This document shows positions 29,078 through 60,067 of a stretch of DNA of 64,000 nucleotides, in pieces. Position 1 is the first letter of the stretch, and every line of letters starts with the position of its first letter. The translations under genes were made by a program, and so were the position numbers. Below the pieces are notes generated by a model, which saw nothing but the letters and a program-made list of their open reading frames with translations, was not told the DNA's origin and searched no databases. Source of the stretch: a virus (lineage: Duplodnaviria; Heunggongvirae; Uroviricota; Caudoviricetes); the IMG/VR virus record IMGVR_UViG_3300002026_000057, one strand, 5' to 3'.

Positions 29078-29868
29078 ATCAGTTCTGAATTTACTGCAAC
29101 TACTCCCTTTTGTGTCACAACCCAAGCAGCACATTTATTAGCAAAGCGTATTGACTCTTCAATGTCCTTATTTTCGATATACTTTACAACTAATGATGCA
29201 ATAAAAGTATCACCTGCTCCGCTAAGATCTCTAACATTGTGTTCATTTTCGATTGAAAATCGTTTAATCTTATTCAGCTCAGCCCCATCCTTTCCTAGCG
29301 TAACAATTAAATTTCCATTGAATTTTATTGAATCACTCCAATTTTGAAGATACTCGGTTTTATTTATTTTAATAAAACCAATATTTTCCACCCAATTTCC
29401 AATTTTTTTCTTACTATCCAAGAACACCAATTTGTGTCGGTTTGCAATATATTGAATATGGTCTTCATATAGATATCCCTTGTTATAATCTGAGATAATA
29501 ACAGCGTCATAATTTGGGAAATAAATATTATCCAATACTGACCACTCGATAGGTTTAATTTTATCATTAACGTCGACGCGCAAAAGCATATGATTCGATT
29601 GTTCCTCGATATACCTGGTTTTTACCGGCCTGAAATCATTTGTAATTAAATCATAATCTATTCCTAAGGCTGAGATGTTCTCTACAACATTGATTGACAT
29701 CCCACCTGAAGTACGTAGCGTTGTTGGTTTAAAAATCGGAACGGGAGCTTCTGGCGATAATCTTTCGCATATTCCGTATTGAAATATGTCGGTACAACTA
29801 TCACCAATTACTAATATTTTACTCATCGTCTTCGTCATTTTTCTTAGGAAAATCCCCATCAGCATCAC
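29074..29868 (-). CDS. pfkB/ribokinase-family sugar kinase (HldE/RfaE domain-I-like)
   Basis: N-terminus ILVIGDSCTDIF and C-terminal GAGDTFIA pfkB signature. Confidence 0.65.
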   Translation of the reverse strand: MMLMGIFLRKMTKTMSKILVIGDSCTDIFQYGICERLSPEAPVPIFKPTTLRTSGGMSINVVENISALGIDYDLITNDFRPVKTRYIEEQSNHMLLRVDVNDKIKPIEWSVLDNIYFPNYDAVIISDYNKGYLYEDHIQYIANRHKLVFLDSKKKIGNWVENIGFIKINKTEYLQNWSDSIKFNGNLIVTLGKDGAELNKIKRFSIENEHNVRDLSGAGDTFIASLVVKYIENKDIEESIRFANKCAAWVVTQKGVVAVNSELI

Positions 29869-37516: not shown

Positions 37517-38940
37517 AGTGATACCGATTTATCTATTTGAATACACTCCTCAAGTGTGTTTGCGGTTTCTTTATCATCCCTGAACATTTTATAGACAGGG
37601 TGAAGTACTGAGTAGTTACCTTCACTGTCCTGAGACAACCCGGAACATTTTATTTCAACAATCTTACCCATTAACTCATCTTGATTATTGGTTATATAGT
37701 CCATTTCATCTTCGGTAATTCCTGTTGGGGATGTTTTCAATAAACCTTCTTCAGAAATAACATTCAATGAAGATATGAGATTGGCATTTTTGCCCGTTCC
37801 ATAATTGAAACCAGTAACACGAAGATCTAAATTGATTTCTTTCTTTACCTTGATTTGGTAAGATGGTTTAGTGTCCGCCCATACTCCTTCCATTCCCTTA
37901 ACCACAGTTCCTTCACCATTACGTCTTAGAACTTCTTCGAAATGATCCATAACTTCCTCAATGGTGCTCACTTCTCTTGTTTCAACAACAGACAAAGTCT
38001 TGAACCCTTGTAAGGCTTTTTTCAATATCTCAAACCTAACCCTATATGGCCTTGTACATTTTCTGGTAAAATATTCGTCGATGGTTAGAAGATCCCAAGC
38101 GGTTACCCGAATGAGATCCAAAGCCTCACGATATGGAAGATGTTTCTTTTCAAGTTTTTCAATATCTTTAGTTACATCTTTACCTTCAGATTTCTTGGTT
38201 GCAATTGTGATGAGTGATGAAACAATACCATTACTTTCGTATCTTGGTAATCCCTCCATTGTCAACTCACCATTCAGGACGCAATCATTAATTCGGACAA
38301 GTTCCGACATGAATGCTGGATCTTCCAAAATTGTGGGTTCACCCTGTCGGGATTCGTTATAAACCTCACCACCCTGGATAATAATGTTAATGAATCTTCC
38401 ATCCATTTTCTCCTGACTGTAACAGGTACCCTTGGATAGAAGTTTTTCAATAAGTTCTTTGGAATAGGGTTTACAACCCATATATCCTGTCTTCTCGATA
38501 AGATCCGGAAATACCTTATTTATATTCCGAGTACCCATACCGATTTTACAATCTTTTTCAATGATACGCTGAATGATACATGCGTCATCGAGGCTAAGGG
38601 ATTCAATAATTTCTTTCAAATATTTAATCGCGGCGTAACCAGTGATTGTTCTTTTAGATAATGGGTCTAACAAGTTTAATGACTCATCTAAAGAATAAGT
38701 TGGTTTATGAAATTGTTCGATTTCGGGAATCTGTTTAATGTAGAACTTAACTCGTTTGGAGTTTGCCATGTACAGAACACGTTTTAGAAGTTCATTGTCC
38801 TTATACTTGGAGAGAATATTCATTTTCTCGTTAGTACCTGATTCGTTTGCAATCTCGTCGAAAATTTGTTTGATAGTCATATTATTTTTATATTTAATAA
38901 TGATACAAAGATAAAAAATATTTTTGGAAGTGCCAAACAA
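37513..38940 (-). CDS. ATP-dependent DNA ligase
   Basis: Motif I EKMDGRFINI (KxDG), motif IV/V EGTVVKG, motif VI YQIKVKKE. Confidence 0.7.
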   Translation of the reverse strand: MFGTSKNIFYLCIIIKYKNNMTIKQIFDEIANESGTNEKMNILSKYKDNELLKRVLYMANSKRVKFYIKQIPEIEQFHKPTYSLDESLNLLDPLSKRTITGYAAIKYLKEIIESLSLDDACIIQRIIEKDCKIGMGTRNINKVFPDLIEKTGYMGCKPYSKELIEKLLSKGTCYSQEKMDGRFINIIIQGGEVYNESRQGEPTILEDPAFMSELVRINDCVLNGELTMEGLPRYESNGIVSSLITIATKKSEGKDVTKDIEKLEKKHLPYREALDLIRVTAWDLLTIDEYFTRKCTRPYRVRFEILKKALQGFKTLSVVETREVSTIEEVMDHFEEVLRRNGEGTVVKGMEGVWADTKPSYQIKVKKEINLDLRVTGFNYGTGKNANLISSLNVISEEGLLKTSPTGITEDEMDYITNNQDELMGKIVEIKCSGLSQDSEGNYSVLHPVYKMFRDDKETANTLEECIQIDKSVSL

Positions 38941-38974: not shown

Positions 38975-39436
38975 ATGATATTAACATCAATACAAGGATT
39001 GATATTTATTCTATATGTGACCTTTTTATTAATTAAATTTAAAGGACCATTACACTCCATTTCAGCGTCATGGTATGAATTAGGATATCCATTAAGAAAT
39101 TTATTTGTGGCATTTTGTTTTTCAATTGGATTTACAATGACGCTACAGACGGGAAGTGTTTTATTCTTTTTATCAGGTCTTGGATTAGCATTTGTTGGAA
39201 TAGCTTCATGGTCTCAATCTTCCGTAAAATTAACACGTTTTATACACTTTGCTGGTGCCGTGAGTGGTATTGTTTTTGGACTATTAGGTATCGGATTTGG
39301 ATTCGATAATTGGATACCATTATTAATGTGGATAATATTATCATTATTAATACTATTGTTTAAAATAAAAAATCATTGGTGGTGGATTGAAATTGTTGCA
39401 TTCATTACCATAATAATCGGATTATATAACCAATAA
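38975..39436 (+). CDS. multi-TM membrane protein (153 aa)
   Basis: 4-5 hydrophobic helices. First gene of the plus-strand block. Confidence 0.5.
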   Translation: MILTSIQGLIFILYVTFLLIKFKGPLHSISASWYELGYPLRNLFVAFCFSIGFTMTLQTGSVLFFLSGLGLAFVGIASWSQSSVKLTRFIHFAGAVSGIVFGLLGIGFGFDNWIPLLMWIILSLLILLFKIKNHWWWIEIVAFITIIIGLYNQ

Positions 39437-39440
39437 AAAC

Positions 39441-40250
39441 ATGAACATATTTAAAAAAATTTTCAATCTTTTTAAGAAAAAGAAAGAAGTAAAAATTCCC
39501 GCTCTAACTAATTTTGGTTGGAAAAAGGATACACACGACCCACGAGACTTTAAATTTAAAGTTACTCGGCCTATTGAATTACCTAAATCAGTTGACCTAA
39601 GAAAAGGGTGTCCACCTGTTTATGATCAAGGTGAACTTGGTAGTTGTACTGCTAATGCTCTTGGAGCCGCATTTCAATTTGAACAAATAAAACAAAAGAA
39701 ACAAGATTTTATACCTTCAAGATTGTTTATATATTATAATGAAAGAGAAATTGAGGGAACTGTTGATCAAGATTCCGGTGCAATGATTCGTACTGGTATT
39801 AAAACAATGGTTAAAGATGGCGTTTGCCCAGAAAAAATGTGGAGGTATAATATATCCAAATTTAAAAATAAACCAACACCTGAATGTTACGAAGAAGCTT
39901 TGAAGAATCAAGTGTTAGAATATTTGAGGATTTCACCACATTCTTTATATGAAGTGAAATATGCGTTAAATGAGGGTCACCCTGTTTCATTTGGTTTTAT
40001 GATTTATGAATCAATGATGTCCCAAGATGTGGCTAAATGGGGAGAAGTTCCAGTTCCAAAACCAGGAGAAACCACTATGGGCGGACACGCAGTTCTTGCA
40101 GTTGGTTATGACGATAAGAAAAACGCTTTACTTGTAAGAAATAGTTGGGGATCCCAATGGGGTATTAATGGATATTTTTGGTTACCTTATGAGTTTGTAA
40201 CAGAACCGAATATGTCTGCCGACTATTGGGTAATAAAACTTGTCGAATAG
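39441..40250 (+). CDS. papain-like (C1 family) cysteine peptidase
   Basis: Catalytic Cys region QGELGSCTANALG, His region GGHAVLAVGYD, Asn region VRNSWGSQWGINGYF. Confidence 0.8.
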   Translation: MNIFKKIFNLFKKKKEVKIPALTNFGWKKDTHDPRDFKFKVTRPIELPKSVDLRKGCPPVYDQGELGSCTANALGAAFQFEQIKQKKQDFIPSRLFIYYNEREIEGTVDQDSGAMIRTGIKTMVKDGVCPEKMWRYNISKFKNKPTPECYEEALKNQVLEYLRISPHSLYEVKYALNEGHPVSFGFMIYESMMSQDVAKWGEVPVPKPGETTMGGHAVLAVGYDDKKNALLVRNSWGSQWGINGYFWLPYEFVTEPNMSADYWVIKLVE

Positions 40251-40256
40251 ATTACA

Positions 40257-41654
40257 ATGAGAGTTATTATCACCGAAAATCAATTAAAAAATGTTATTAA
40301 CCGTACTATTCTAAATGAAACTTCCGGTGAATTAGAAAAGTATTATGTTAAAACTGGTATTTTTGATGATGAAGACCGAAATGTTATAATGAATATCACT
40401 AACGGCGATAATTTCACAAAACTTATCGCCGATATGTACTATTATTTTGCCGGTAAGTACAACAAAGAATTGGTTGAACCAAGAAGATTATCTGCGAGAG
40501 ATATTGAAATTCTCGAAAATACACATAGAAGACTAAAAGAATATAACAAAAATGTTATACCTATTCATGATCTATATGCAAAAGAACATAACGCTCATCC
40601 GTTAGAAAAAATGAATGATTTAGATTGGAGAGAACGAATCATTGAAAGAATAAAACAATTACCGAGTTTATTAGTTCGTAATTTAAGGGGTGATATTAGA
40701 AAAGAAAGAACCCATTATGAATTGGAAGGGTTGTTTCATACAATAAAAGAAATACAAAATTCCTTAAAGTTAGTTGGACAAACTAAACCTGAACATCGTG
40801 AAAAAATTGAGAAGAAAATATTTTCGAGCGCCAACGACACTTTCGATGGGGTTAAAAAAAGACTTGAAGATACAACTATTCCATATTTGTCACAAGATGA
40901 TGCATCTGAAGGTATTGTCGAAAAAGTTAGAGATATAGGTGATGAAGCAGAAATATTATACAACCAAGACAATATTTTAGTTGTAAAAATTAATAGTGCA
41001 GAGGCGATGGGGTATATCGGTTGTAGTTCTCAATGGTGTTTTGCTTCAAATCCACAACAATATTGGGACAATTATACTGGCGAAGGTGGATTTGCTACCA
41101 TAGTTTTTAATTTCAATGAAGAGCCAAGTGAACCAACCGCAATGGTTGTTGTATTGGAAGATGGTAATGTATATAATATGTATAATGATTTTATGGAGGA
41201 TGGGGAGGAGTATTTAATAGATATAGGCGTACATAACATAATCCAAAGAGGTGAAATGGAATTATCCGAAAGCTTTGATATTGAAAAACAAATCGATGGG
41301 TTTATTTACCATGGAACAGGAAAAGGACAGGCTTTAAACATACAAAAAGATGGGTTTATGAAACCTAACAGAACAGGTGAAGAACATCCATCAATTTCAT
41401 TTACTAAAAGTTTTAACTATTCAAAATATTATGCAACCGTTAAAGGTGGATCAAACAAAATGGTTATATTGAGAACCAAATTAACAAACGATTTTATATT
41501 GTCTCCAAAGATATTAAATAATAAAGGAGACGAATATGTTACATTTAAAAAAGTTTCTACAAACGATTTAGAAATACTGTGTCCCGATAATAAATGGAGA
41601 CCATTAAATGAATGGGATGTTATATTTGATGAACCTAAAATTAACTTAAATTAA
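40257..41654 (+). CDS. paralog C of the 'ITE-x-QL' family (465 aa) with C-terminal YHGTG...ISFT ART-like core
   Basis: N-terminus MRVIITENQLKNVINRTILNE. C-terminus FIYHGTGKGQALN...HPSISFTKSFNYSKYYAT parallels the HGS...GIYF cores at 663..1785. Confidence 0.6.
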   Translation: MRVIITENQLKNVINRTILNETSGELEKYYVKTGIFDDEDRNVIMNITNGDNFTKLIADMYYYFAGKYNKELVEPRRLSARDIEILENTHRRLKEYNKNVIPIHDLYAKEHNAHPLEKMNDLDWRERIIERIKQLPSLLVRNLRGDIRKERTHYELEGLFHTIKEIQNSLKLVGQTKPEHREKIEKKIFSSANDTFDGVKKRLEDTTIPYLSQDDASEGIVEKVRDIGDEAEILYNQDNILVVKINSAEAMGYIGCSSQWCFASNPQQYWDNYTGEGGFATIVFNFNEEPSEPTAMVVVLEDGNVYNMYNDFMEDGEEYLIDIGVHNIIQRGEMELSESFDIEKQIDGFIYHGTGKGQALNIQKDGFMKPNRTGEEHPSISFTKSFNYSKYYATVKGGSNKMVILRTKLTNDFILSPKILNNKGDEYVTFKKVSTNDLEILCPDNKWRPLNEWDVIFDEPKINLN

Positions 41655-41690
41655 AAATAATTCATAAAACATTTGGCAAATCCAAATATC

Positions 41691-41720
41691 TTTTTTATAT
41701 TTGTACCATATTTATAATAA
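41691..41720 (+). promoter_or_regulatory. promoter copy A: TTATATTTGTACCATATTTATAATAA, containing a Bacteroidota -7 element TAtaTTTG
   Basis: Exact 27-mer repeated at 42644-42669. Followed by a small ORF and a strong terminator. Confidence 0.5.
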
Positions 41721-41773
41721 CATTCCTGTTAGTCCCTGTCGAAAGACAAACTTTCAGGTGTAAAAAGAAAACA

Positions 41774-41857
41774 ATGAGAACAATTAATAAATATTTCGTA
41801 TCTAAATCTTATAAGATGTATCTTATGGGAATCGGGAGAGATTTGTTTAATTGTTAA
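41774..41857 (+). CDS. small ORF A (27 aa, MRTINKYFVSKSYKMYLMGIGRDLFNC) between promoter copy A and a terminator
   Basis: Hand-translated. May instead be a non-coding transcript. Confidence 0.2.
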   Translation: MRTINKYFVSKSYKMYLMGIGRDLFNC

Positions 41858-41886
41858 CATAACAAGTAACTGAATTTTTAAAAAAT

Positions 41887-41935
41887 CCCGATTCGAAAGA
41901 TTCGGGATTTTTTTTTGTTCTTTGATGTATTGGAA
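41887..41935 (+). terminator. rho-independent terminator ATCCCGATTC-GAAA-GATTCGGGAT plus T9, followed by the repeated tail GTTCTTTGAYRTATTGG
   Basis: 9/10-bp stem with a GNRA loop and a T-run. The same tail is found after the terminator at 42872. Confidence 0.65.
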
Positions 41936-41942
41936 TAACATA

Positions 41943-42016
41943 TACGCTCGAAGCTCAAGTGGACGGGCTTCTGGCTTTTAACCAGAAGGTTGTGGGTTCG
42001 AGGCCCACCGGGCGTA
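41943..42016 (+). tRNA. tRNA-Lys (anticodon TTT), canonical length but apparent 8-nt T-loop
   Basis: Acceptor ACGCTCG/CGGGCGT, D-stem GCTC/GGGC, anticodon stem TCTGG/CCAGA, loop CTTTTAA, T-arm GTGGG-TTCGAAGG-CCCAC. Confidence 0.5.
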
Positions 42017-42022
42017 CAAAAT

Positions 42023-42112
42023 GACTCTGTGGCAGAGATAGGCGTGATGCACCAGACTTTTAATCTGGGATCCCCATAAAGGTGTACGTGGGTTCGATTC
42101 CCACCGGGGTCA
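42023..42112 (+). tRNA. tRNA-like, 90 nt, anticodon loop CTTTTAA (UUU) with ~19-nt variable region; identity uncertain
   Basis: Acceptor GACTCTG/CGGGGTC (with G-U pairs), T-arm GTGGG-TTCGATT-CCCAC, discriminator A, anticodon stem CCAGA/TCTGG. Confidence 0.4.
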
Positions 42113-42169
42113 CTTGAGAGTAGAGTTTAGGTATTTTCTGTATCTTGTTTGAACTGAAATATCCAAATC

Positions 42170-42238
42170 GCCGACAATCCAGGGAGACGACGGCTCTGTA
42201 AAAGCCTAGCGCGAAGGTTCAAGATCCTTCTGGCGGCA
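42170..42238 (+). tRNA. degenerate tRNA-like element (acceptor GCCGACA/TGGCGGC, loop CTGTAAA, 8-nt T-loop); possible pseudogene
   Basis: 6/7 acceptor pairing, T-stem GAAGG/CCTTC, but no convincing D-arm. Confidence 0.25.
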
Positions 42239-42303
42239 CATAGGTATCGGTTTTAGGGTTTTTTACTACTTTTTTGGTCCAATGTCCCGAAAAAAAGTAG
42301 AAT

Positions 42304-42386
42304 GGAAAGGTGGTCGAGTGGTTAATGGCACCAGACTGTAAATTTGGTCTCTTCGGAGTTCGGGGGTTCGAATCCCTCCCTTTCCA
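42304..42386 (+). tRNA. tRNA-Tyr (GTA), type II
   Basis: Acceptor GGAAAGG/CCTTTCC, 3-bp D-stem, anticodon stem CCAGA/TTTGG, loop CTGTAAA, variable hairpin CTC-TTCG-GAG, T-loop TTCGAAT, discriminator A. Confidence 0.7.
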
Positions 42387-42393
42387 CAACAAT

Positions 42394-42466
42394 GCATCCG
42401 TAGCTCAATTGGCGGAGCTCGTGACTCTTACTCATGAGGTTGGGGGTTCGATTCCCTTCGGATGCA
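42394..42466 (+). tRNA. tRNA-Lys (CTT)
   Basis: Acceptor GCATCCG/CGGATGC, D-arm GCTC-AATTGGCG-GAGC, anticodon loop CTCTTAC, T-loop TTCGATT. Confidence 0.65.
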
Positions 42467-42472
42467 CAAATC

Positions 42473-42555
42473 ACCATCGTAGTAAAGTGGCCAAATACGC
42501 TTCTCTCATAAGGAAGTCCTTTTTAGGTTCGAGGGTTCGAATCCCTCCGATGGTA
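42473..42555 (+). tRNA. tRNA with anticodon CAT (Met or Ile2) carrying a long variable hairpin (CCT-TTTT-AGG)
   Basis: Acceptor ACCATCG/CGATGGT, anticodon stem CTTCT/GGAAG, loop CTCATAA, T-arm GAGGG-TTCGAAT-CCCTC, discriminator A. Confidence 0.55.
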
Positions 42556-42643
42556 CAAAATGGTGATTATCACCATAATAGAAAAAAGTTTTAAAAAACT
42601 TAAAAAAAAGTTTAAAAAAACTTGGTTATTCCAATACGATTAT

Positions 42644-42669
42644 TTATATTTGTACCATATTTATAATAA
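42644..42669 (+). promoter_or_regulatory. promoter copy B: the same TTATATTTGTACCATATTTATAATAA 27-mer
   Basis: Identical to the 41694-41720 element. Confidence 0.5.
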
Positions 42670-42688
42670 AGATTAAACGCTGAAACAA

Positions 42689-42838
42689 ATGAAAAACATA
42701 ATTGCAATAATTTCAAGGACACAAATATCGTCCCCATCAACGACAAGTAGTCGTAATGGAAATGGTATATTCTGTTCAGACTTTACAGGCAGAAATATTG
42801 CAGACACGGGTTCAGGTGGAAAGGTTGTTTTAAGATAA
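42689..42838 (+). CDS. small ORF B (49 aa, MKNIIAIISRTQISSPSTTSSRNGNG...) between promoter copy B and a terminator
   Basis: Hand-translated. Flanked by the promoter at 42644 and the terminator at 42872. Confidence 0.25.
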   Translation: MKNIIAIISRTQISSPSTTSSRNGNGIFCSDFTGRNIADTGSGGKVVLR

Positions 42839-42871
42839 ACTTTTCCGAAACACACAAACTGAACCCGACAT

Positions 42872-42919
42872 CTGAATAGATAGTCGGGTTTTTTGTTCTT
42901 TGACATATTGGTATTTTGA
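42872..42919 (+). terminator. rho-independent terminator CCCGAC-N13-GTCGGG plus T6, followed by GTTCTTTGACATATTGG
   Basis: Hairpin plus T-run. The tail is shared with the terminator at 41887. Confidence 0.6.
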
Positions 42920-42999
42920 TGAAGTGGCTGAGTGGTTGAAAGCGACAGTCTGCAAAACTGTTTACGAAAGTACTCGTGGGTTCGAATCCCACCTTCATC
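42917..42999 (+). tRNA. tRNA with anticodon GCA (Cys identity, U73) but a type-II-like long variable hairpin (TAC-GAAA-GTA)
   Basis: Acceptor GATGAAG/CTTCATC, 3-bp D-stem GCT/AGC, anticodon stem ACAGT/ACTGT, loop CTGCAAA, T-arm GTGGG-TTCGAAT-CCCAC, discriminator T. Confidence 0.55.
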
Positions 43000-43077
43000 T
43001 CCATTTGGAACGTTCTGTCATTGCTATATCGGGACAGAACACCTCCATAGGGTTGCATGGTTTCCTATGGACCACCT

Positions 43078-43166
43078 GGGTGAGTAGCTGAATTGGCTTA
43101 GCGGGAGGCTGTTAACCTCTGATTGAAAATATTGAAATAAAGTGGGTTCGAAGCCCTCCTTGCCCT
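43078..43166 (+). tRNA. tRNA-Asn (GTT)-like with a 21-nt AT-rich insertion at the variable-loop position
   Basis: Acceptor GGGTGAG/CTTGCCC (with G-U pairs), anticodon stem GGAGG/CCTCT, loop CTGTTAA, insert GATTGAAAATATTGAAATAAA, T-loop TTCGAAG. Confidence 0.45.
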
Positions 43167-43229
43167 CAAATTATAGTTTTGTTTAACTATACTTATAGTT
43201 GATTAATAGAGAATATTTTCAACTGATAT

Positions 43230-43303
43230 TGTCTTGTAGTTCAGCCAGGAAGAACGTTCGGCAGATACCCGAAAGGTCGTTGGTTCAAACCCAATCAAGA
43301 CAA
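43230..43303 (+). tRNA. tRNA, probable Ile (GAT), anticodon loop CAGATAC (A at position 33)
   Basis: Acceptor TGTCTTG/CAAGACA, D-arm GTTC-AGCCAGGAA-GAAC, anticodon stem TTCGG/CCGAA, T-arm GTTGG-TTCAAAC-CCAAT. Confidence 0.5.
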
Positions 43304-43373
43304 CGAGAGAGACCCTTTTTTCTGATTTTTTTTAAAGGACACTTCGGTGGAAGCGTAGAAAAAAGTCTGATAC

Positions 43374-43455
43374 TGTGACGTGGATGAGCGGTTTAGTCAC
43401 CAGTCTGATACACTGGGTGCTTAGCACGACGTGAGTTCGAATCTCACCGTCACAA
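43374..43455 (+). tRNA. tRNA-Ile (GAT) with a 14-nt variable hairpin (GTGC-TTA-GCAC)
   Basis: Acceptor TGTGACG/CGTCACA, anticodon stem CCAGT/ACTGG, loop CTGATAC, T-arm GTGAG-TTCGAAT-CTCAC, discriminator A. Confidence 0.55.
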
Positions 43456-43575
43456 CAAAAGGTTAGTAATCTAGACGCCTAACCAGCTGAAAAGATGAAG
43501 TTTCCTTGGCGAAATTGATCCAAACTGGCACCTGTGGTGGGATGAGAAGTGGTGATAAAGTGACCAAAAACTATA

Positions 43576-43663
43576 AGGAAGAGTGTCCGAGTGGCTTATG
43601 GAGGCGGTCTTGAAAACCGTTGTCCCTGCAAGGGGACCGTGGGTTCGAATCCTACCTCTTCCG
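43576..43663 (+). tRNA. tRNA-Ser (TGA), type II
   Basis: Acceptor GGAAGAG/CTCTTCC, loop CTTGAAA, variable hairpin GTCCC-TGCAA-GGGAC, discriminator G. Confidence 0.7.
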
Positions 43664-43735
43664 CAAAAGGGTAGCTGTTTTTTAGAATTTTTTTATCGAA
43701 CTGAGTAAAGGTATTCGGAAACAAAAAATTCGTTT

Positions 43736-43820
43736 GGAGAGGTGGCAGAGTGGTCTAATGCGGCAGTCTTGAAAACTGTTGGGCTTTCGGGCTCCGGGGG
43801 TTCGAATCCCTCCCTCTCCG
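43736..43820 (+). tRNA. tRNA-Ser (TGA), second copy, type II
   Basis: Acceptor GGAGAGG/CCTCTCC, loop CTTGAAA, variable arm GGGCTTTCGGGCTC, discriminator G. Confidence 0.65.
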
Positions 43821-43934
43821 CAACTGAAAACTATTGGATTGTCTAAGTTTTTTAGTGGCGGAAGTTTAAAGGACAATAAACCGCCCCGGAAAGGTATATA
43901 AAACAGTGAACTTGTTCATTGATTCCGGGAATTT

Positions 43935-44023
43935 GGAAGAATGGGTGAGTGGTTTAAACCAGCGGCTTGCTAAGCCGTCGGGCGGGGTAACCCGCCCCAA
44001 GAGTTCGAATCTCTTTTCTTCCG
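43935..44023 (+). tRNA. tRNA-Ser (GCT), type II
   Basis: Acceptor GGAAGAA/TTCTTCC, loop TTGCTAA, variable hairpin CGGGCGGGG-TAA-CCCGCCCC, T-arm AAGAG-TTCGAAT-CTCTT, discriminator G. Confidence 0.7.
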
Positions 44024-44097
44024 CCATATTTAAAGAAATTTCATTAAAAGTCGCCTGTTTCAGAAACCGATGAGTATTTATAAATAAATAAACATTT

Positions 44098-44517
44098 ATG
44101 AATACAAATGAAAAGGGTAATAGAGGATTGGCAAATGTAATATCTGACGTAATTAATAAGGGGTATTTTATATTTTTACCACTTACGGACACAACAAATA
44201 TTGATATTATAATTGCAAATGAAAAAATGGAAATGTTCAGAGCTCAAGTAAAATATAGTTCTGTTAATAAACATGGAGTTATTAAAGCATCTACATCAAA
44301 TGTTGTTGATAGAAAAAGAGTTTCTGTAAATTTTTCGGTTATTGATTTGTGGGCAATTTATTGTCCTGACACAAGTAAAGTATACTATGTACCAAAAAAA
44401 GAATTGGTAAATAAGTCATCTGGAATGGAATTACGTGTTAATAAACCGAAATTGAATAATCCAAACATACATTTTGCAAATGATTATTTGGATATAAAAA
44501 ATGCGTTGATAAAGTAA
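44098..44517 (+). CDS. hypothetical protein (139 aa) embedded in the tRNA array
   Basis: ORF on the same strand as the tRNAs. No motif identified. Confidence 0.45.
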   Translation: MNTNEKGNRGLANVISDVINKGYFIFLPLTDTTNIDIIIANEKMEMFRAQVKYSSVNKHGVIKASTSNVVDRKRVSVNFSVIDLWAIYCPDTSKVYYVPKKELVNKSSGMELRVNKPKLNNPNIHFANDYLDIKNALIK

Positions 44518-44752
44518 TCAGCCAAATTGGATTATCATTAGCTGATTTCACACGTCAAAACAATGGTCATGACATTGTGGAGATGTTAGGGTTCTGAATT
44601 GCATAAGAGGCTCTATTAATGTTCAGCTGGAAAACTTCCCTGTGTTTGTGTATAGGCAGCACAATAAATACGGGGATATTCTGAGAGACATTTTTAAGGT
44701 GGTTGAAATATCATCGGTAGTGTGAGTATAAGGCTCACTTCAGAACCAAATT

Positions 44753-44825
44753 GGTGTCGTAGCTCAGTTGGTAGAGCGCGGGCCTGAAGAGCCCGGCGTC
44801 GGTGGTTCGAATCCACCCGATACCA
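44753..44825 (+). tRNA. tRNA-Phe (GAA)
   Basis: GGTGTCGTAGCTCAGTTGGTAGAGCGCGGGCCTGAAGAGCCCGGCGTCGGTGGTTCGAATCCACCCGATACCA; clean cloverleaf. Confidence 0.8.
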
Positions 44826-44831
44826 CAATAT

Positions 44832-44905
44832 TCTTGTGTAGCTCAGTTGGTTAGAGCGGCGGACTGTTAATCCGTAGGTCGAAGGTTCAAGTCCTTCCTC
44901 AAGAG
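44832..44905 (+). tRNA. tRNA-Asn (GTT), canonical
   Basis: D-arm GCTC-AGTTGGTTA-GAGC, anticodon stem GCGGA/TCCGT, loop CTGTTAA, T-arm GAAGG-TTCAAGT-CCTTC, discriminator G. Confidence 0.7.
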
Positions 44906-44999
44906 CAATACTGGTTTTTGATCCCGCTTTACCGTTAGGATGCTCAGGCTGAACAGAATACAAAGGAGGAATGACAGGTGTGGAGAGACACACAAATAC

Positions 45000-45071
45000 G
45001 GATTGGTAGCTCAGGGGTAGAGCGCTGGCCTGAAGAGCCAGAGGTCGAAGGGTCAACTCCTTCTCATTCCA
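45000..45071 (+). tRNA. tRNA-Phe (GAA)-like second copy with a divergent T-loop (GTCAACT) and an acceptor mismatch
   Basis: D-arm GCTC-AGGGGTA-GAGC, anticodon stem CTGGC/GCCAG, loop CTGAAGA, T-stem GAAGG/CCTTC. Confidence 0.45.
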
Positions 45072-45273
45072 CAAATGTGGGTTGTCCACCAGTAGAGGTG
45101 GGTACGTAAGTCTGTTATACACGGCAGAGTCCACGCCAAATATCGGGGATGATACACTGTTTTATCACAGTGCCCCGTCCAAAAAAGGACAAGTGAATGG
45201 ATCAATCCCTGTTTCCGCAGGGGGAGATTACCGTCTAGAGTACGGACATTTACATCGGAATTGTCCTTTACTT

Positions 45274-45361
45274 GCAGTAGTCGCCTAGTTGATCGATGGC
45301 ACTGGATTTCCAATCCAGTCAGATAAAGTTCACGTCGAGGGTTTGAATCCCTCCTACTGCT
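45274..45361 (+). tRNA. tRNA-Gly (TCC)-like with an 18-nt variable-region insertion
   Basis: Acceptor GCAGTAG/CTACTGC (7/7), 3-bp D-stem GCC/GGC, anticodon stem CTGGA/TCCAG, loop TTTCCAA, T-arm GAGGG-TTTGAAT-CCCTC, discriminator T. Confidence 0.5.
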
Positions 45362-45720
45362 CTTTTAAGATATCTGGAAATACAGGTTCGAATCCTGTAC
45401 CGCTCCTTCGGGGGAGGTTCGTCTAAGGGATAGGACGCCGGAGCACACGGTCTCCTTTGCTTAGGAATATCGAAGCGGCTACATCTCAATATTAGCTATA
45501 AAAGATGTAGAATGGGTGAAAGTCCCAAGGAGATCAGACTTTCGTGGTCGTGGGTTCGAGCCCCACCGCTACCGTCGGTAGTGTAAGTCTCAGTTGGTAG
45601 AGCTGCGAACCATAAATGTTATTTCTTAGGAACACCAATCACGATGGGTTCGAAACCGTAGTGAAGGTACATTAGAAAGTGTTCTAGCGGGAATAACAAT
45701 GCCTCGGATAATAATAGTAC
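45362..45720 (+). other. cluster of tRNA-like fragments: isolated T-arms, hairpins, and a 3' half (T-arm plus CGCTACC-G) directly abutting a 5' half (GGTAGTG-TA-D-arm) with mutually complementary acceptor strands
   Basis: T-arms ACAGG-TTCGAAT-CCTGT (45381-45398) and GTGGG-TTCGAGC-CCCAC (45556-45572). 3' acceptor CGCTACC at 45573-45579, then TC, then GGTAGTG plus a D-arm-like TCTC-AGTTGGTA-GAGC. GCGAA at 45613 can pair with TTCGT at 45547. Confidence 0.3.
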
Positions 45721-45736
45721 TTAAAAATTCCGGGGT

Positions 45737-45810
45737 CGCGATGTAGCTCAGTTTGGTTAGAGCGCCGCTGCACAAGGCGGAGGTCAGAGGTTCGAATCCT
45801 CTCATCGCAA
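45737..45810 (+). tRNA. tRNA-like with C1.A72 mismatch (initiator-like) and a non-7-nt anticodon loop (CCGC-TGCACAAG-GCGG)
   Basis: Acceptor CGCGATG/CATCGCA, D-arm GCTC-AGTTTGGTTA-GAGC, T-arm AGAGG-TTCGAAT-CCTCT, discriminator A. Anticodon loop is 8 nt (or 6 with a U.G pair). Confidence 0.4.
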
Positions 45811-45815
45811 CTATA

Positions 45816-45900
45816 TGCGAGGTCGACTGGAGTTGGTTCCAGCGGGGGCTCATAACCCCTAACCCTTACGGGAACACAGGTTCGAATCCTGTCCTCGCTA
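45816..45900 (+). tRNA. tRNA with anticodon CAT and a 15-nt variable hairpin (CCC-TTAC-GGG)
   Basis: Anticodon stem GGGGG/CCCCT, loop CTCATAA, D-arm CTGG-AGTTGGTT-CCAG, T-arm ACAGG-TTCGAAT-CCTGT, acceptor GCGAGG/CCTCGC. Confidence 0.5.
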
Positions 45901-45922
45901 CTAATATTTTTTTTAAAATACA

Positions 45923-46009
45923 TGCGGGGTGGTGTAATTGGTTAACACGCTGGGCTCATAACCCAGAGACATCTAATGCTTCGTGTCAGTTCGAATCTGA
46001 CCCCCGCTA
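45923..46009 (+). tRNA. tRNA with anticodon CAT and an 18-nt variable-region insertion; U1.U72 mismatch
   Basis: Acceptor TGCGGGG/CCCCGCT, D-arm GTGT-AATTGGTTA-ACAC, anticodon stem CTGGG/CCCAG, loop CTCATAA, T-arm GTCAG-TTCGAAT-CTGAC. Confidence 0.5.
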
Positions 46010-46014
46010 CAATT

Positions 46015-46087
46015 GCCTATTTAGCTCAGTTGGTGGAGCGTATCCTTGGTATGGATAAGGTCATGGGTTCGAATCCCGTACTAGGCT
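46015..46087 (+). tRNA. tRNA-Thr (GGT)
   Basis: Acceptor GCCTATT/ACTAGGC, D-arm GCTC-AGTTGGTG-GAGC, anticodon stem TATCC/GGATA, loop TTGGTAT, T-arm ATGGG-TTCGAAT-CCCGT. Confidence 0.65.
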
Positions 46088-46131
46088 CATTCTCGTTTTT
46101 CATATATTTATGGATATAAAAAATTAAAACT

Positions 46132-46374
46132 ATGTTCAAAAAATTATGGGAAAATATTAAGGCATGGTGGATTAAAACCGCCGAACCTTGGTTAAAGAAA
46201 AGTTGGATGCAAATTGTAAATATCATTGTAATGTTCATTGCATATGGTACAACCGATTCACTTCCATGGGTACAAGCAATTGTAGGATTGTGGTTGTTCC
46301 TTCTTTTGGGATATTATATTTTCTGGAAACTCTTTGGAGCGGAAAAAATGTTCAAAAAGGATATCACAACGTAA
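46132..46374 (+). CDS. small 2-TM membrane protein (80 aa) inside the tRNA array
   Basis: Trp-rich hydrophobic helices. Followed by a strong terminator. Confidence 0.45.
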   Translation: MFKKLWENIKAWWIKTAEPWLKKSWMQIVNIIVMFIAYGTTDSLPWVQAIVGLWLFLLLGYYIFWKLFGAEKMFKKDITT

Positions 46375-46398
46375 AACAATTATTTTTACAGTATGGGT

Positions 46399-46430
46399 AA
46401 ACCCCAATTATACTGTAATTGGGGTTTTTT
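46399..46430 (+). terminator. rho-independent terminator ACCCCAATTA-TACTG-TAATTGGGGT plus T6
   Basis: 10-bp stem plus T-run right after the 46132..46374 ORF. Confidence 0.7.
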
Positions 46431-46433
46431 ATT

Positions 46434-46518
46434 GCCGATGTGGCATCAGCGGTCGACTGCGCCTGACTTGTAATCAGGATCTTAAACGGCAACGGGGGTT
46501 CGAATCCCTCCATCGGCT
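46434..46518 (+). tRNA. tRNA-Thr (TGT) with ~15-nt variable-region expansion
   Basis: Acceptor GCCGATG/CATCGGC, 3-bp D-stem, anticodon stem CCTGA/TCAGG, loop CTTGTAA, T-arm GGGGG-TTCGAAT-CCCTC, discriminator T. Confidence 0.5.
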
Positions 46519-46592
46519 CCATCCCTTCGGGGATCCCCGGCTTTTGGTGCTGGTAACACCTTGTAACCGATAACAATTAAAAACTACCAAAT

Positions 46593-46667
46593 GCGATAGT
46601 AGCTCAGTTGGTTCAGAGCGGGACCTTGCCAAGGTCCAGGTCGTGGGTTCGAGCCCCATTTATCGCT
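46593..46667 (+). tRNA. tRNA-Gly (GCC)
   Basis: Acceptor GCGATAG/TTATCGC, D-arm GCTC-AGTTGGTTCA-GAGC, anticodon stem GGACC/GGTCC, loop TTGCCAA, T-loop TTCGAGC, discriminator T. Confidence 0.7.
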
Positions 46668-46672
46668 CAATT

Positions 46673-46745
46673 GCGAAAGTAGCTCATTTGGTAGAGCATC
46701 AGCCTTCCAAGCTGAGGGTGGCGAGTTCAAGCCTCGTCTTTCGCT
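46673..46745 (+). tRNA. tRNA-Gly (TCC), canonical
   Basis: Acceptor GCGAAAG/CTTTCGC, D-arm GCTC-ATTTGGTA-GAGC, anticodon stem TCAGC/GCTGA, loop CTTCCAA, T-arm GCGAG-TTCAAGC-CTCGT. Confidence 0.7.
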
Positions 46746-46974
46746 CCAAGTATTCTTCATAACTCAGAGGATTCATCGCGCCAGAAATGGTGAGGAACTT
46801 CAGGACATCACTGCCAAATGCGGGAGGGTTAAAACCCGTTATCACCGCAGAGGATGCAACCCAAAAAAGCTTAGACGGCAAGCAGGTCTATAATAGTAAG
46901 GTTGGGGCTTAGACAAATGATGAAACAAAACAGAAACCTGGGTACGCTCAAGTTATGATTTATTTTGATTAATA

Positions 46975-47048
46975 GGATCATTAGCTTAATTGGTAAAAGC
47001 AGAACACTCATAATGTTAAGAGTAACGGTTCGATCCCGTTATGATCCA
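46975..47048 (+). tRNA. tRNA with anticodon CAT (Met/Ile2), canonical length
   Basis: Acceptor GGATCAT/ATGATCC, D-arm GCTT-AATTGGTA-AAGC, anticodon stem GAACA/TGTTA, loop CTCATAA, T-arm AACGG-TTCGATC-CCGTT, discriminator A. Confidence 0.6.
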
Positions 47049-47478
47049 CAAATAAATAATATTTAATATTGTAATAAAGGTCTTGGATCCTTCAAAGATA
47101 ATATTGAATATCTCACGAATGCTATAAAATATTTAAAATAAAAATATCTCATACAACCATATCCCGAAACTATTTATATATGTAGTTTCATAAAATTCTA
47201 AATTAATAAAAATGAAAGATTGTGAACCGTATAAACAGAAACAAAACAGCAACATTGTTCCTTTTCTTAGGAACATTTTTCAATCCTTTAGGATACGATG
47301 CTCTCCTAAAATTCTTAATCGATACGACAGGCAGTTATTGGTTTTCAATTTCCATTTTCTACCTATTGTCAGTAGTTTGCTTTATCTCTTACTTTGTTTT
47401 AGCTAAAGTAAACCCATTAAAACTCTTTACAAGAAAAAGAGATTTATCTTAGGATATTAATTTCTTTTTCTTTATATT

Positions 47479-47553
47479 TGCACCCGTAGCTTAATTGGAT
47501 AAGCATCACTCTTCTAAAGTGAAGTCATATGAGTTCGAGCCTCATGGGGTGTT
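47479..47553 (+). tRNA. tRNA-Arg (TCT)
   Basis: Acceptor GCACCCG/GGGGTGT (one mismatch), D-arm GCTT-AATTGGATA-AGC, anticodon stem TCACT/AGTGA, loop CTTCTAA, T-arm ATGAG-TTCGAGC-CTCAT. Confidence 0.55.
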
Positions 47554-47566
47554 CTAATTAATTGAT

Positions 47567-47710
47567 ATGTCTACAACTATATGTCCAAAATGTAAACAAC
47601 CACTTATTACAATAGATAAAGATTACGTTATTTGTTGTGATGAGGTAATATACGTGATAAATGATATTCACAATTCAAAAAATGAATCACGTCTTGAAAT
47701 ATCAAGATGA
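47567..47710 (+). CDS. small zinc-ribbon ORF (47 aa, MSTTICPKCKQPLITIDKDYVICCDE...)
   Basis: Hand-translated. CPKC...CC cluster. Below the ORF-track cutoff. Confidence 0.25.
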   Translation: MSTTICPKCKQPLITIDKDYVICCDEVIYVINDIHNSKNESRLEISR

Positions 47711-47849
47711 AAATAATAAATGGATTTCAGTAAATGGATATGCATTTATTGATAATTGGGGACATTGTATAATAATTGTTTATGGCGAAGGTCGTAGAGA
47801 TGCACTTAATCAACATTTAATAAAAACGCTCCCATATTTCAACGGATAG
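47661..47849 (+). CDS. hypothetical protein (62 aa); partly overlaps the zinc-ribbon ORF, so the true start is uncertain
   Basis: ORF track. Its C-terminal codons (…YFNG*) coincide with repeat copy 1 of the tRNA-3'-like element. Confidence 0.3.
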   Translation: MIFTIQKMNHVLKYQDENNKWISVNGYAFIDNWGHCIIIVYGEGRRDALNQHLIKTLPYFNG

Positions 47850-47893
47850 AATTAGAATTTCCTAAATTTTAGATACAGGTTCGATTCCTGTTG
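47830..47893 (+). repeat. tRNA-3'-half-like repeat, copy 1 (TTCAACGGATAGAA...TTTTAGATACAGGTTCGATTCCTGTTGGGAG)
   Basis: T-arm-like ACAGG-TTCGATT-CCTGT with no matching 5' half. ~80% identical to the 48308-48365 copy. The two copies flank the GNAT gene. Confidence 0.5.
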
Positions 47894-47913
47894 GGAGTAC
47901 AAAAAATATTAGT

Positions 47914-48294
47914 ATGGTAAGAATTTTAAATAAAAAAGACAACAAGCAATTAAGTGAATTAATAAAAATTGCACTTTTTGAAAACGTTTTTATTGTAAAA
48001 AAGAAAAATCATCATTTTTTTGGCTATTTTATCGATGATAAATTAGTTGGTGTTGTTGGATATTTTACAATGAAAAAATATAAAACCATTGGTTTTATTA
48101 ACGCATTTGTTTTACCTGAATACAGAAAATCTGGTATTTATAAAAAACTTACTGAAGAAAGGTTTAATTTTTGTGTTGAAAATTATAAAGGATTTAAAAT
48201 TTTTATATCCGTAAATAGTAAAAGTAGACCACAAATAGAAAAATTAGGTTTTAAATTAATTGAAGAACAATATAGAATGTGTTTAAGTATTTAA
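47914..48294 (+). CDS. GNAT-family N-acetyltransferase
   Basis: Motif A region VGVVGYF...INAFVLPEYRKSGIYKKL. 126 aa. Confidence 0.6.
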   Translation: MVRILNKKDNKQLSELIKIALFENVFIVKKKNHHFFGYFIDDKLVGVVGYFTMKKYKTIGFINAFVLPEYRKSGIYKKLTEERFNFCVENYKGFKIFISVNSKSRPQIEKLGFKLIEEQYRMCLSI

Positions 48295-48307
48295 TAATAC
48301 CCTTGTA

Positions 48308-48365
48308 ATTCAACGGATAGAAAGTTTTAGATAGAGGTTCGATTACTGTTGGGTGCTGAAGTAGA
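48308..48365 (+). repeat. tRNA-3'-half-like repeat, copy 2 (TTCAACGGATAGAAAGTTTTAGATAGAGGTTCGATTACTGTTGGGTG)
   Basis: Shares ATTCAACGGATAGAA and TTTTAGATA.AGGTTCGATT.CTGTTGGG with copy 1. Confidence 0.5.
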
Positions 48366-48376
48366 ATAATACCAAT

Positions 48377-49126
48377 ATGAAATATAAAACAATTGTTATT
48401 TCCGATGTCCATCTTGGAAGAAAAGATTCTAAAGTGGATGAAGTTGTGGATTTTCTTAAAACAAATTCTTGTGATAATCTTTTCTTAAATGGTGACATCA
48501 TTGACGGATGGCATCTTCAGCGTGGAGGTAAATGGACCAAAACGCATACAAAGTTCATTAAGAAAATAATGAAACTGGTTTCACACAATAAAACAAAAGT
48601 AGTATACATTAGGGGTAATCATGATGATTTTCTTGAAAATATTATGCCGTTTTCAATTGGCGATAATTTTGAGATAAAAACTGATTACGTTTACAATAGT
48701 TTGGGTAAGAAATTTTTAATACTACATGGTGATATTTTTGATGACATAACATCGAAAATCACTTGGTTATCAAAATTAGGCGATGTTGGGTATGAAGTTT
48801 TATTGTGGATTAATAGGAGGAACAATAATAAAAGATTAAAAAGGGGATTACCTTATAAATCTTTTTCTCAGGACATTAAAAAAAAGGTGAAATTTCTTGT
48901 TAGCTTCCTGTCAAAATTTGAAGAGAAAGCCGTCAAATTCGCTGAACATAAAAAATGTGATGGAGTTATTTGTGGACACATACACACCCCGGAAAACAAA
49001 ATAATAAATGGAATGATTTATATGAATTCCGGAGATTGGGTTGAAACCAAAAGTGCTTTGGTTGAGGATTTTGATGGTAATTGGGAAATTATTTATTCAG
49101 AAGATAAAATCATTAAACAATCATAA
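48377..49126 (+). CDS. calcineurin-like metallophosphoesterase
   Basis: Motifs ISDVHLG, GDIIDGWH, GNHDDF, LHGDIFD and GHIHTP. Confidence 0.7.
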   Translation: MKYKTIVISDVHLGRKDSKVDEVVDFLKTNSCDNLFLNGDIIDGWHLQRGGKWTKTHTKFIKKIMKLVSHNKTKVVYIRGNHDDFLENIMPFSIGDNFEIKTDYVYNSLGKKFLILHGDIFDDITSKITWLSKLGDVGYEVLLWINRRNNNKRLKRGLPYKSFSQDIKKKVKFLVSFLSKFEEKAVKFAEHKKCDGVICGHIHTPENKIINGMIYMNSGDWVETKSALVEDFDGNWEIIYSEDKIIKQS

Positions 49127-60062: not shown

Positions 60063-60067
60063 AATTT

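Follow-up and report, generated by a model that had tools for sequence, protein, structure and literature searches.

A membrane protein, a papain-family peptidase and a two-module protein encoded at the head of a phage tRNA island

Several described systems bear on the three adjacent plus-strand genes examined here, open reading frames (ORFs) ORF1, ORF2 and ORF3, which occupy positions 38975–41654 of a 64,000-nt stretch of Caudoviricetes DNA (IMG/VR virus record IMGVR_UViG_3300002026_000057; hereafter the window) and lie ahead of an array of tRNA genes. In phage RNA repair, a counter-defence scheme, phage tRNAs stand in for cleaved host tRNAs, 2H, cREC or calcineurin-like phosphoesterases open cyclic phosphates, a KptA-type ADP-ribosyltransferase (ART) takes off the 2'-phosphate with NAD+, an RNA ligase seals the break and nucleotidyltransferases rebuild the ends (PMC9503650 sec. 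3.7.3). Short C1A cysteine peptidases of the xylellain type are reported to have been acquired horizontally by Myoviridae, Siphoviridae and Mimiviridae (PMC10380794). The capsid-targeting sequences of phage T4 are N-terminal peptides of ~10 residues that are cut after L/I-x-E by the prohead protease gp21 (PMC9026906), and T4 Alt is an injected ART (PMC5512222). The polyvalent proteins of Iyer et al. 2017 are multidomain phage proteins with 2–15 domains.

The explanation that we prefer, at a rough probability of 0.5 for the model as a whole, is that ORF1–ORF3 are the accessory head of a tRNA and translation island at 38975–49126. They would be three independently gained and lost accessory genes, each from a family recurrently attached to tRNA genes or tRNA-repair enzymes. 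Ancestrally in the wider lineage, ORF2 would stand immediately ahead of tRNA-Lys/Tyr, with a T4 Rnl1-type tRNA ligase immediately before it in sister phages. We infer that ORF3 would use NAD+ to modify or heal RNA ends, putatively those of tRNAs, much as KptA/Tpt1 does and as one element in protecting phage translation from host anticodon- or tRNA-targeting nucleases, and that the peptidase and ORF1 would be island cargo, possibly contributing counter-defence proteolysis and a membrane function tied to expression of the island. The genes concerned are as follows.

38975–39436, plus strand: ORF1, membrane protein, 153 aa
39441–40250, plus strand: ORF2, C1A cysteine peptidase, 269 aa
40257–41654, plus strand: ORF3, two-module protein, 465 aa
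40257–41276, plus strand: N-module of ORF3 (aa 1–340)
41301–41654, plus strand: C-module of ORF3 (aa 349–465)
41944–47900, plus strand: 26 tRNA genes making up the tRNA island; the first four are Lys(ttt), Lys(ttt), Tyr(gta) and Lys(ctt)
44098–44517, plus strand: PD-(D/E)XK endonuclease gene amid the tRNA genes
47914–48294, plus strand: GNAT acetyltransferase
48377–49126, plus strand: calcineurin-like metallophosphoesterase
57186–58247, minus strand: T4 Rnl1-type RNA ligase

Association of the three gene families with tRNA genes or tRNA-repair enzymes

The ORF list confirmed the three plus-strand ORFs at the positions given for them in an earlier note on this DNA, and their packing is operon-like. 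The gaps are 4 nt between ORF1 and ORF2 and 6 nt between ORF2 and ORF3, and from this spacing the three genes are probably co-transcribed. They do not make up the only sizeable plus-strand coding block, as had been stated, but the largest contiguous one; further plus-strand genes were found at 24353–25114, 25685–26158, 44098–44517, 47914–48294, 48377–49126 and 59809–60183. The GC skew switches to positive across ~38–50 kb, placing ORF1–ORF3 at the head of a plus-strand region of ~10 kb that includes the tRNA genes, and the rest of the window (GC content ~32 %) is mostly transcribed leftward. The region runs to ~49.1 kb and comprises the trio, the 26 tRNA genes, the PD-(D/E)XK endonuclease gene (probably of the homing type), the GNAT gene and the metallophosphoesterase gene. 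The first tRNA gene begins at 41944. Adjacency to the tRNA island, treated as incidental in the earlier note, is the strongest signal that the three families share.

Relatives of each gene were collected by exact-protein look-ups and IMG/VR scans for each family and, together with four GenBank phage regions, gave 151 loci that were tallied by tblastn. ORF1 homologues occupy 58 distinct loci, 29 of them with tRNA genes within 3 kb, 15 within 100 bp and nine with tRNA genes on both flanks within 150 bp. None of six control ligase loci had tRNA genes nearby. The typical order is tRNA-Leu/Ala, ORF1, tRNA-Trp, tmRNA, and several other flanks also occur. In many phage tRNA arrays (L108, L112, L116, L121, L124–L126, L128–L130, L136, L137 and L145), the ORF1-family gene was seen wedged between tRNA genes with gaps of 17–150 bp, often beside a phage tmRNA.

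The nearest relatives of the peptidase outside the clade of the window (L016–L019 and L047; 67–73 % identity) have a gene for tRNA-Lys(ttt), Tyr(gta) or Lys(ctt) 270–310 bp downstream on the same strand, and these are the tRNAs that open the island in the window. The genes upstream of the peptidase in L016, L017, L019 and L047 belong to one BLAST cluster, and the one in L047 matches T4 Rnl1 (PDB 2C5U, 1.1e-15). With Rnl1 upstream and tRNAs downstream in these sister phages, the older order seems to be Rnl1, peptidase, tRNA-Lys/Tyr. In the clade of the window, ORF3 sits between the peptidase and the tRNA genes.

The family of the ORF3 N-module (ORF3N) was found with a tRNA-repair enzyme. Home-made hidden Markov models detected a CCA-adding enzyme within 3 kb and on the same strand in 15 of 44 ORF3N loci, and in none of 45 peptidase or 69 ORF1 loci. 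The 15 span 26–68 % identity, and in L005 the CCA-adding enzyme gene is directly 3' of the N-module gene. In seven of 33 distinct ORF3N loci tRNA genes lie 0.65–1.8 kb upstream, often a suppressor-like tRNA with a cta anticodon together with tRNA-Cys. In Cellulophaga phage phi4:1 (L001) a ligase, a PARP-like protein annotated as 'polymerase' and a tRNA nucleotidyltransferase are encoded side by side (8373–9524 and 7637–8371), and this pairing of an ART with a CCA-enzyme would be analogous to the associations of the N-module. The PARP-like protein, gp031, was also considered as kin of ORF3 and rejected, as the two have no significant similarity. The window itself encodes the Rnl1-type RNA ligase and the calcineurin-like phosphoesterase listed above, in line with an RNA-repair setting.

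Suppressor-like tRNAs recur among these phages. The relatives with both the N-module and a CCA-adding enzyme (L067–L081, L148) carry amber-suppressor-like tRNAs with a cta anticodon, which ARAGORN calls 'Pyl', and the window has an ochre-suppressor-like tRNA with the anticodon tta at 8805–8877 on the minus strand. Stop codons may be reassigned or suppressed in these phages.

The three families are mostly found apart. The earlier note had proposed that a membrane component, a protease and a modifier together make up one effector or processing unit, and had pointed to three-gene synteny in related phages as the test; that synteny is confined to genus-level relatives and fails outside the immediate clade. 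The full trio is present in four of the 151 loci (L006/L007 and L053/L054), all close relatives in which the ligase is 79–80 % identical and the same ligase and R2K genes adjoin. The ORF3 homologue of L006/L007 is 348 aa and has no ART domain, and in L053/L054 the peptidase and ORF3N are separated by an additional leader gene of 97 aa. At slightly greater distance, L036 (ligase 74 %) has the peptidase without ORF1, L058 (ligase 66 %) has the peptidase and ORF3N without ORF1, and L020/L021, with no ligase match in the locus, have the peptidase only. A single family is represented in 138 loci (62 ORF1, 39 ORF3N, 37 peptidase), and 37 of the 45 peptidase-bearing loci have no ORF1 homologue. Among the ~130 other distinct loci, the families are apart in all but three, namely two partial pairs and one decayed remnant. 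None of the peptidase loci from the IMG/VR scan has ORF1 or ORF3N within 4 kb. When the contig lists were compared by eye, no contig carried both the peptidase and ORF3N, and a single one carried both ORF1 and the peptidase, at a distance of ~7 kb. Clustering of the genes flanking the peptidase in 39 loci gave no conserved neighbour family. The reading of the trio as a unit is only weakly supported, and the support goes no further than synteny through recent descent.

The remnant is a decayed peptidase C-terminus at 5243–5443 in L124/L125, with 64 % identity across 67 aa and no ORF left intact, inside a tRNA array and 1.8 kb downstream of an ORF1 homologue. It hints at an older linkage of ORF1 and the peptidase in tRNA islands.

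The proteins and the shared leader

An AlphaFold2 (AF2) model of ORF1 (pLDDT 96.4) has six transmembrane helices, where the earlier note had counted 4–5, and a short helix at residues 31–35. Invariant positions in the family are S28/I29/S30/S32/Y34, H91/G94/A95 and W137/E139/A142/F143, and K132/N133/W136 are at least 90 % conserved. No family in Pfam, PHROG, NCBIfam or PADLOC matched ORF1 above threshold. The lone entry was a sub-threshold Peptidase_M50B (16.3 bits, cut-off 26), and ORF1 has no HExxH motif. In metagenomes, the family makes up 42 clusters of ~153 aa. Going by the model, ORF1 is predicted to be a six-helix inner-membrane protein with invariant polar residues in an enzyme- or transporter-like constellation.

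The papain-family identity proposed earlier for ORF2 was upheld by its motifs, Pfam and alignment to a PDB structure. The motifs QGELGSC, GGHAV and NSWG start at residues 63, 214 and 234, and the catalytic set (Gln63, Cys69, His216, Asn234) is intact, each residue aligning with the matching motif of xylellain from Xylella fastidiosa (PDB 3OIS). Pfam Peptidase_C1 (PF00112) scored 62.2 bits (E 9.8e-17, gathering cut-off 20.7), PHROG 16701 'peptidase' matched at 1.1e-21, and xylellain itself matched over residues 23–268 with ~50 % identity (E 7.7e-66). As judged from this alignment, ORF2 is a predicted xylellain-type short C1A cysteine peptidase, like xylellain in its full-length alignment, its similar size and the contexts YDQG.GSCTANAL, GGHAVL.VGYDD and RNSWG. 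It differs in genomic setting, since the gene heads a tRNA island and the copies in sister phages stand between an Rnl1-type RNA ligase and tRNA-Lys/Tyr. The N-terminal 24 residues are basic, amphipathic and variable. A hydropathy scan found no hydrophobic segment, so ORF2 has no Sec signal and is presumably cytoplasmic. Homologues were found in Burkholderia phage FLC9, Lak megaphages, a 595-kb uncultured phage and metagenome-assembled genomes of giant viruses. Phage carriage of this type of peptidase is already known, and ORF2 adds a member.

Mapping of homologues divides ORF3 into two parts, with residues 1 to ~340 belonging to one family and ~345–465 to another. In the AF2 model (pLDDT 81), residues 7–230 are helical and 231–325 alpha/beta, followed by a disordered linker and a compact alpha/beta C-terminal domain. 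The alpha/beta subdomain of the N-module carries a G-C-x-S-x-W-C-F motif that is invariant in the family alignment (G255-C256...W260-C261-F262), and the basic residues R125, R141, R148, K149, R151 and K187 are invariant or near-invariant. Pfam has no model for either module, and nothing in NCBIfam or PADLOC matched ORF3 above threshold. PDB sequence and profile searches with the two modules gave nothing meaningful, and tblastn of ORF3 against GenBank phages gave no match. A contig look-up by exact sequence returned no record for ORF3 or for P0001. The complete fusion of the two modules was found only in the window and in one 73 %-identical relative (P0002).

A profile search with the N-module against 1.84 billion representatives gave 614 matches at E<=1e-3 and 173 at E<=1e-30. 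Members of the family are mostly stand-alone proteins of ~345 aa, and many of the matches are giant proteins of 1,200–3,600 aa. A Pfam scan of 51 multidomain members found the N-module fused to CCA-adding enzymes (six), ART-PolyVal (six), GNAT (five), 2H phosphoesterases (four), NUDIX (three), phage lysozyme (three), cREC (two) and SAM lyase (one). LigT and tRNA-ligase CPD domains were found in addition to the 2H phosphoesterases. The domain order in P0103 is GNAT, N-module, CCA-adding, 2H, CPD.

The C-module is a minimal ART-fold domain of ~115 aa, a putative transferase. Its conserved residues are Y351-H352-G353-T354 in strand 1, S379-I-S381-F382 in strand 2, R406-T407 and E426-Y427. Across 23 sequences, conservation reaches 95 % or more for H352, S379-I-S381-F382 and E426, which lies in a later strand. 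Together they give a hybrid H / SxS / E pattern, which was placed by conservation and is a plausible, if unusual, candidate NAD+ site. Elsewhere, the C-module is mostly a stand-alone protein of 120–145 aa or is C-terminal to ART-PolyVal or ParB-like domains, and in P0030, P0032, P0041 and P0044 ART-PolyVal and the C-module are found side by side as distinct domains. Pfam PTS_2-RNA (PF01885, KptA/Tpt1) did not match ORF3, and structure comparison of ORF3 with KptA/Tpt1 matched the ART lobe alone. Unlike KptA/Tpt1, ORF3 has an ART module of ~115 aa with H352 / S379-x-S381 / E426, joined to a different N-module.

Like the polyvalent proteins, both modules of ORF3 recur in phage multidomain proteins of 500–3,600 aa, with ART-PolyVal, ParB-like, GNAT, lysozyme, SAM lyase, CCA-adding, 2H and NUDIX domains as partners, and the window contains two ART-PolyVal genes with the same leader as ORF3. 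Unlike them, ORF3 has two modules, the published lower bound, most of its close homologues have one, and many of the partners are RNA-end enzymes, not classic anti-restriction effectors.

The leader of ORF3 is MRVIITENQLKNVI. It follows the motif M-x-(I/V)-I-(I/V)-T-E-x-Q-L, and the strict pattern used to search for it at the N-terminus was M-x(0,4)-[ILVM][ILV][ILV]-[TS]-E-x-Q-[ILVMY]. Besides ORF3, it is found on two tandem genes, and a looser copy is present at 59814–60062 on the minus strand.

663–1196, minus strand: leader-bearing ART-PolyVal gene (PF18760, 39.5 bits, cut-off 31.2)
1201–1785, minus strand: leader-bearing ART-PolyVal gene (PF18760, 43.6 bits, cut-off 31.2)

The earlier note had grouped ORF3 and other leader-bearing genes in one family. 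The leader is real on all three genes, but the other members are not close paralogues of ORF3. ORF3 did not match PF18760 even at E<=1 to 5, and hhalign of the C-module against an ART-PolyVal set reached only 59 % probability, so the YHGTG domain of ORF3 belongs to another ART-fold family, distantly related to that of the products of 663–1196 and 1201–1785. Together with an adjoining SPFH/Band-7 gene, these tandem genes take up 663–2706 on the minus strand, with a terminator-like hairpin before the first. In relatives, members of the N-module family carry the leader, as do proteins of 261 aa (L012) and 97 aa (L053) and one C-module that stands alone (P0247). As it heads several different proteins, it is a portable N-terminal peptide. 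On four ORFs of the window it ends in I-T-E, V-T-E or L-T-E at residues 5–9. In being short, common to otherwise unrelated proteins and ending in I/V/L-T-E, it resembles the capsid-targeting propeptides of T4, a likeness of pattern alone, in a phage that is not T4-like. Cleavage of the leader by ORF2 was also considered and is unsupported. Outside the immediate clade, there is no leader-bearing gene near the peptidase, so nothing ties the peptidase to cleavage of the leader.

Weighing the explanations

The set of partners of ORF3, which is an RNA-repair toolkit, together with the ART fold of the C-module, favours an ORF3 that would modify RNA or tRNA ends. Several observations weigh against this and against the island model around it. 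True KptA/Tpt1 proteins have an N-terminal RNA lobe and an R-H-R-R tetrad, and the C-module has neither. Elsewhere it is joined to ART-PolyVal and ParB-like domains, and one stand-alone copy lies in an early-type region adjoining a Lar-like gene; these contexts would fit a protein-targeting ART of host takeover equally well. The N-module is fused to lysozyme and SAM lyase, which points to virion-delivered polyvalent proteins and not to housekeeping RNA repair. Adjacency of the peptidase to tRNA genes is limited to one sister lineage, distant peptidase loci being mostly without nearby tRNA genes, and could be synteny by descent. A search of this window for a CCA-adding enzyme detected none. No promoter for ORF1–ORF3 was identified, and no copy of the 32-nt promoter motif described below faces ORF1. 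Finally, tRNA islands are hot spots for accessory genes, and the co-location may reflect common expression or tolerance of insertion instead of function. On balance, we place an RNA-directed role for ORF3 just a little above a protein-directed one.

A more far-reaching form of the island model can be put forward tentatively at most. It holds that the N-module and the small ART modules would constitute an undescribed NAD+-dependent pathway of tRNA-end repair or modification, used with CCA-adding enzymes, 2H, cREC, NUDIX and phage tRNAs against host tRNA-targeting defences, with ORF1 and the protease as functional parts of translation-protection islands. The protease might, for example, destroy an anticodon nuclease, and the membrane protein might be coupled to expression of the tRNA array.

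Among the alternatives, delivery of ORF3 with the virion survives best, and we consider it possible though doubtful. The leader would be a capsid-targeting propeptide of the T4 type, cut after (I/L/V)-x-E, ORF3 and the ART-PolyVal proteins would travel in the phage head and enter the host with the DNA, and the ART domain would act there on host proteins by ADP-ribosylation, like T4 Alt, with the N-module as a carrier or a second effector. The I/V/L-T-E ending at residues 5–9 on four unrelated ORFs of the window is what such a signal would look like, and the same leader occurs in relatives on the stand-alone C-module P0247 and on the 97-aa and 261-aa proteins. T4 provides the precedent both for the cleavage, by gp21 (PMC9026906), and for an injected ART, Alt (PMC5512222). 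The occurrence of the N-module inside proteins of 1,200–3,600 aa with ART-PolyVal, lysozyme and SAM lyase, fold matches in BFVD to phage 'structural proteins' and ParB-like multidomain proteins, and the stand-alone C-module in an early-type region with a Lar-like gene also fit. However, ORF3 lies in a replication and tRNA region, away from the few recognisable structural genes, and no prohead protease or head gene could be identified in the window. The model places the leader helix within the N-module (residues 7–31, low pLDDT), where it may be structural, and the CCA-adding, 2H, cREC and NUDIX partners suit RNA repair better than protein modification.

The cooperating unit suggested in the earlier note, in which the C1 peptidase would process the leader of ORF3 and its paralogues and so free or activate a host-takeover effector sited at the membrane, is now very unlikely. 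Tight gene packing, the retention of the trio in three close lineages (the window, L006/L007 and L053/L054, the last with its extra leader gene) and of the peptidase with ORF3N in L058 would be expected of it. Papain-type C1A S2 pockets prefer hydrophobic P2 residues, and such a preference is compatible with cleavage at I-I-T|E. Beyond genus-level relatives, however, the families are apart, with no ORF1 or ORF3N within 4 kb of the peptidases from the IMG/VR scan. In L008 and L012 a leader-bearing gene is present with no peptidase close to it, the ORF3 homologue of L006/L007 lacks the ART domain, and ORF1 is dispensable (L036, L058). Judged by synteny, the unit is largely refuted.

An abortive-infection-type defence or superinfection exclusion system, with a membrane sensor, a protease and an NAD-consuming effector, is highly improbable. 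The trio superficially resembles the logic of such systems and the window has a GmrSD_N/NsnA-like gene, but PADLOC gave no match for ORF1, ORF2 or ORF3, there is no conserved co-occurrence, and phages carry the three families in association with tRNA islands. A lysis cassette, with ORF1 as holin and ORF2 as an endolysin-type peptidase, can be dismissed almost entirely even though a membrane protein stands directly 5' of a clan-CA peptidase and a 753-aa annotated endolysin of Alicyclobacillus phage MMB025 has an N-terminal C1-like domain (31 % identity), because the genes do not look like an ordinary one. ORF1 has six transmembrane helices with invariant polar residues, and its family is usually in tRNA arrays and not beside lysins. 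ORF2 shares ~50 % identity with the cathepsin-like xylellain and lacks an export signal. The two genes do not stay together in L036, L058, L020/L021 and 37 of 45 peptidase loci, no neighbour family is conserved, and a conventional Amidase_2 endolysin candidate is encoded elsewhere in the window.

Regulatory elements, neighbouring genes and significance

The features of the window that complete the picture are the following.

38906–38937, minus strand: promoter-motif copy TTTGGC...N...TTTTATCTTTG for the divergent DNA ligase gene, in a divergent region of ~94 nt
41672–41703, plus strand: the only plus-strand copy of the promoter motif, just 3' of ORF3
24353–25114, plus strand: Amidase_2 (PGRP-type N-acetylmuramoyl-L-alanine amidase), likely the true endolysin

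A regex scan found ~12 intergenic copies of a 32-nt Bacteroidota-type promoter motif, TTTGGC...TTTTATATTTG. A scan for sigma-70 promoters gave 19 sites against 18.2 in shuffles, which is no excess, and TATATTTA, considered as a 'late' motif, was rejected (16 copies against 18 expected). The promoter at 41672–41703 is followed by a structured RNA of ~200 nt (minimum free energy (MFE) z -4.5) and by a hairpin with a T-run at 41880–41916, before the first tRNA gene. This hairpin is the first strong terminator after ORF1–ORF3, and the whole element, 41672–41916, separates ORF3 from the tRNA genes. Rfam gave no match to the RNA, which could be a leader, a small RNA or an attenuator of the tRNA island.

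A second RNA of ~200 nt was seen within the island, between tRNA-Gly and tRNA-Met (46759–46956, plus strand), with a full-length, sub-threshold match to Rfam RNaseP_arch. It scored 39.8 bits in a 6.4-kb scan and 31.6 in a 241-nt rescan (gathering score 84; E 6.8e-9). It retains the core motifs GAGGAA..UC and ACAGAA and has lost the specificity domain. A homologous element (48 bits, E 1.9e-10) lies in an unrelated phage tRNA array (L108, 5262–5461, plus strand), and seven of 32 predicted pairs are compensatory between the two. The MFE z-score of -0.6 is uninformative, and blastn against GenBank phages found no match. The element may be a phage-encoded minimal RNase P-like RNA. Many of the tRNAs of the island (42023–46521; Lys, Met, Ile, Cys, Asn, Thr and Gly) are unusually long at 83–92 nt and may have introns or extended arms, and no anticodon was assigned to the tRNA at 45737–45811.

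The divergent gene upstream of ORF1 encodes an ATP-dependent DNA ligase with 46 % identity to that of phi4:1, which makes the phage a distant relative of this Bacteroidota podovirus lineage. Its nearest cultured relative is phi4:1, and it is not T4-like. A nucleotide search of GenBank phages with the ORF1–ORF3 block gave no match. Other cargo, all on the minus strand, includes a triple-PAS-domain protein (11880–12992), a GmrSD_N/NsnA-like nuclease-domain protein (21387–22196; PADLOC NsnA 1.2e-16), a PfkB-family kinase (29074–29868) and a PAPS-reductase-like protein (50895–51797). An ABC transporter trio at 13773–17304 (minus strand), made up of an ATPase, a permease and a substrate-binding protein with a fused OmpA domain, recurs just upstream of an ORF1 homologue in L052 (1–2717).

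As concepts, ART domains, polyvalent proteins and phage RNA-repair islands are already known. The new findings are that the two modules of ORF3 and the ORF1 family have no profile in Pfam, PHROGs, NCBIfam or PADLOC, that the N-module is tied by fusion and neighbourhood to the CCA-adding enzyme, and that a six-helix membrane protein family is embedded in tRNA arrays. Comparative genomics has undone an attractive story of membrane protein, protease and modifier. In its place stand a minimal ART-fold family that escapes current profiles and an N-module family of at least 614 representative clusters, linked to the CCA-adding enzyme and to domains that process NAD or ADP-ribose. Phage tRNA islands are increasingly viewed as an answer to host tRNA-cleaving defences, and most of the protein genes within them have no annotation. 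If ORF3 does have an RNA-directed, NAD+-dependent activity, it would represent a new branch of phage RNA-repair and counter-defence biology.

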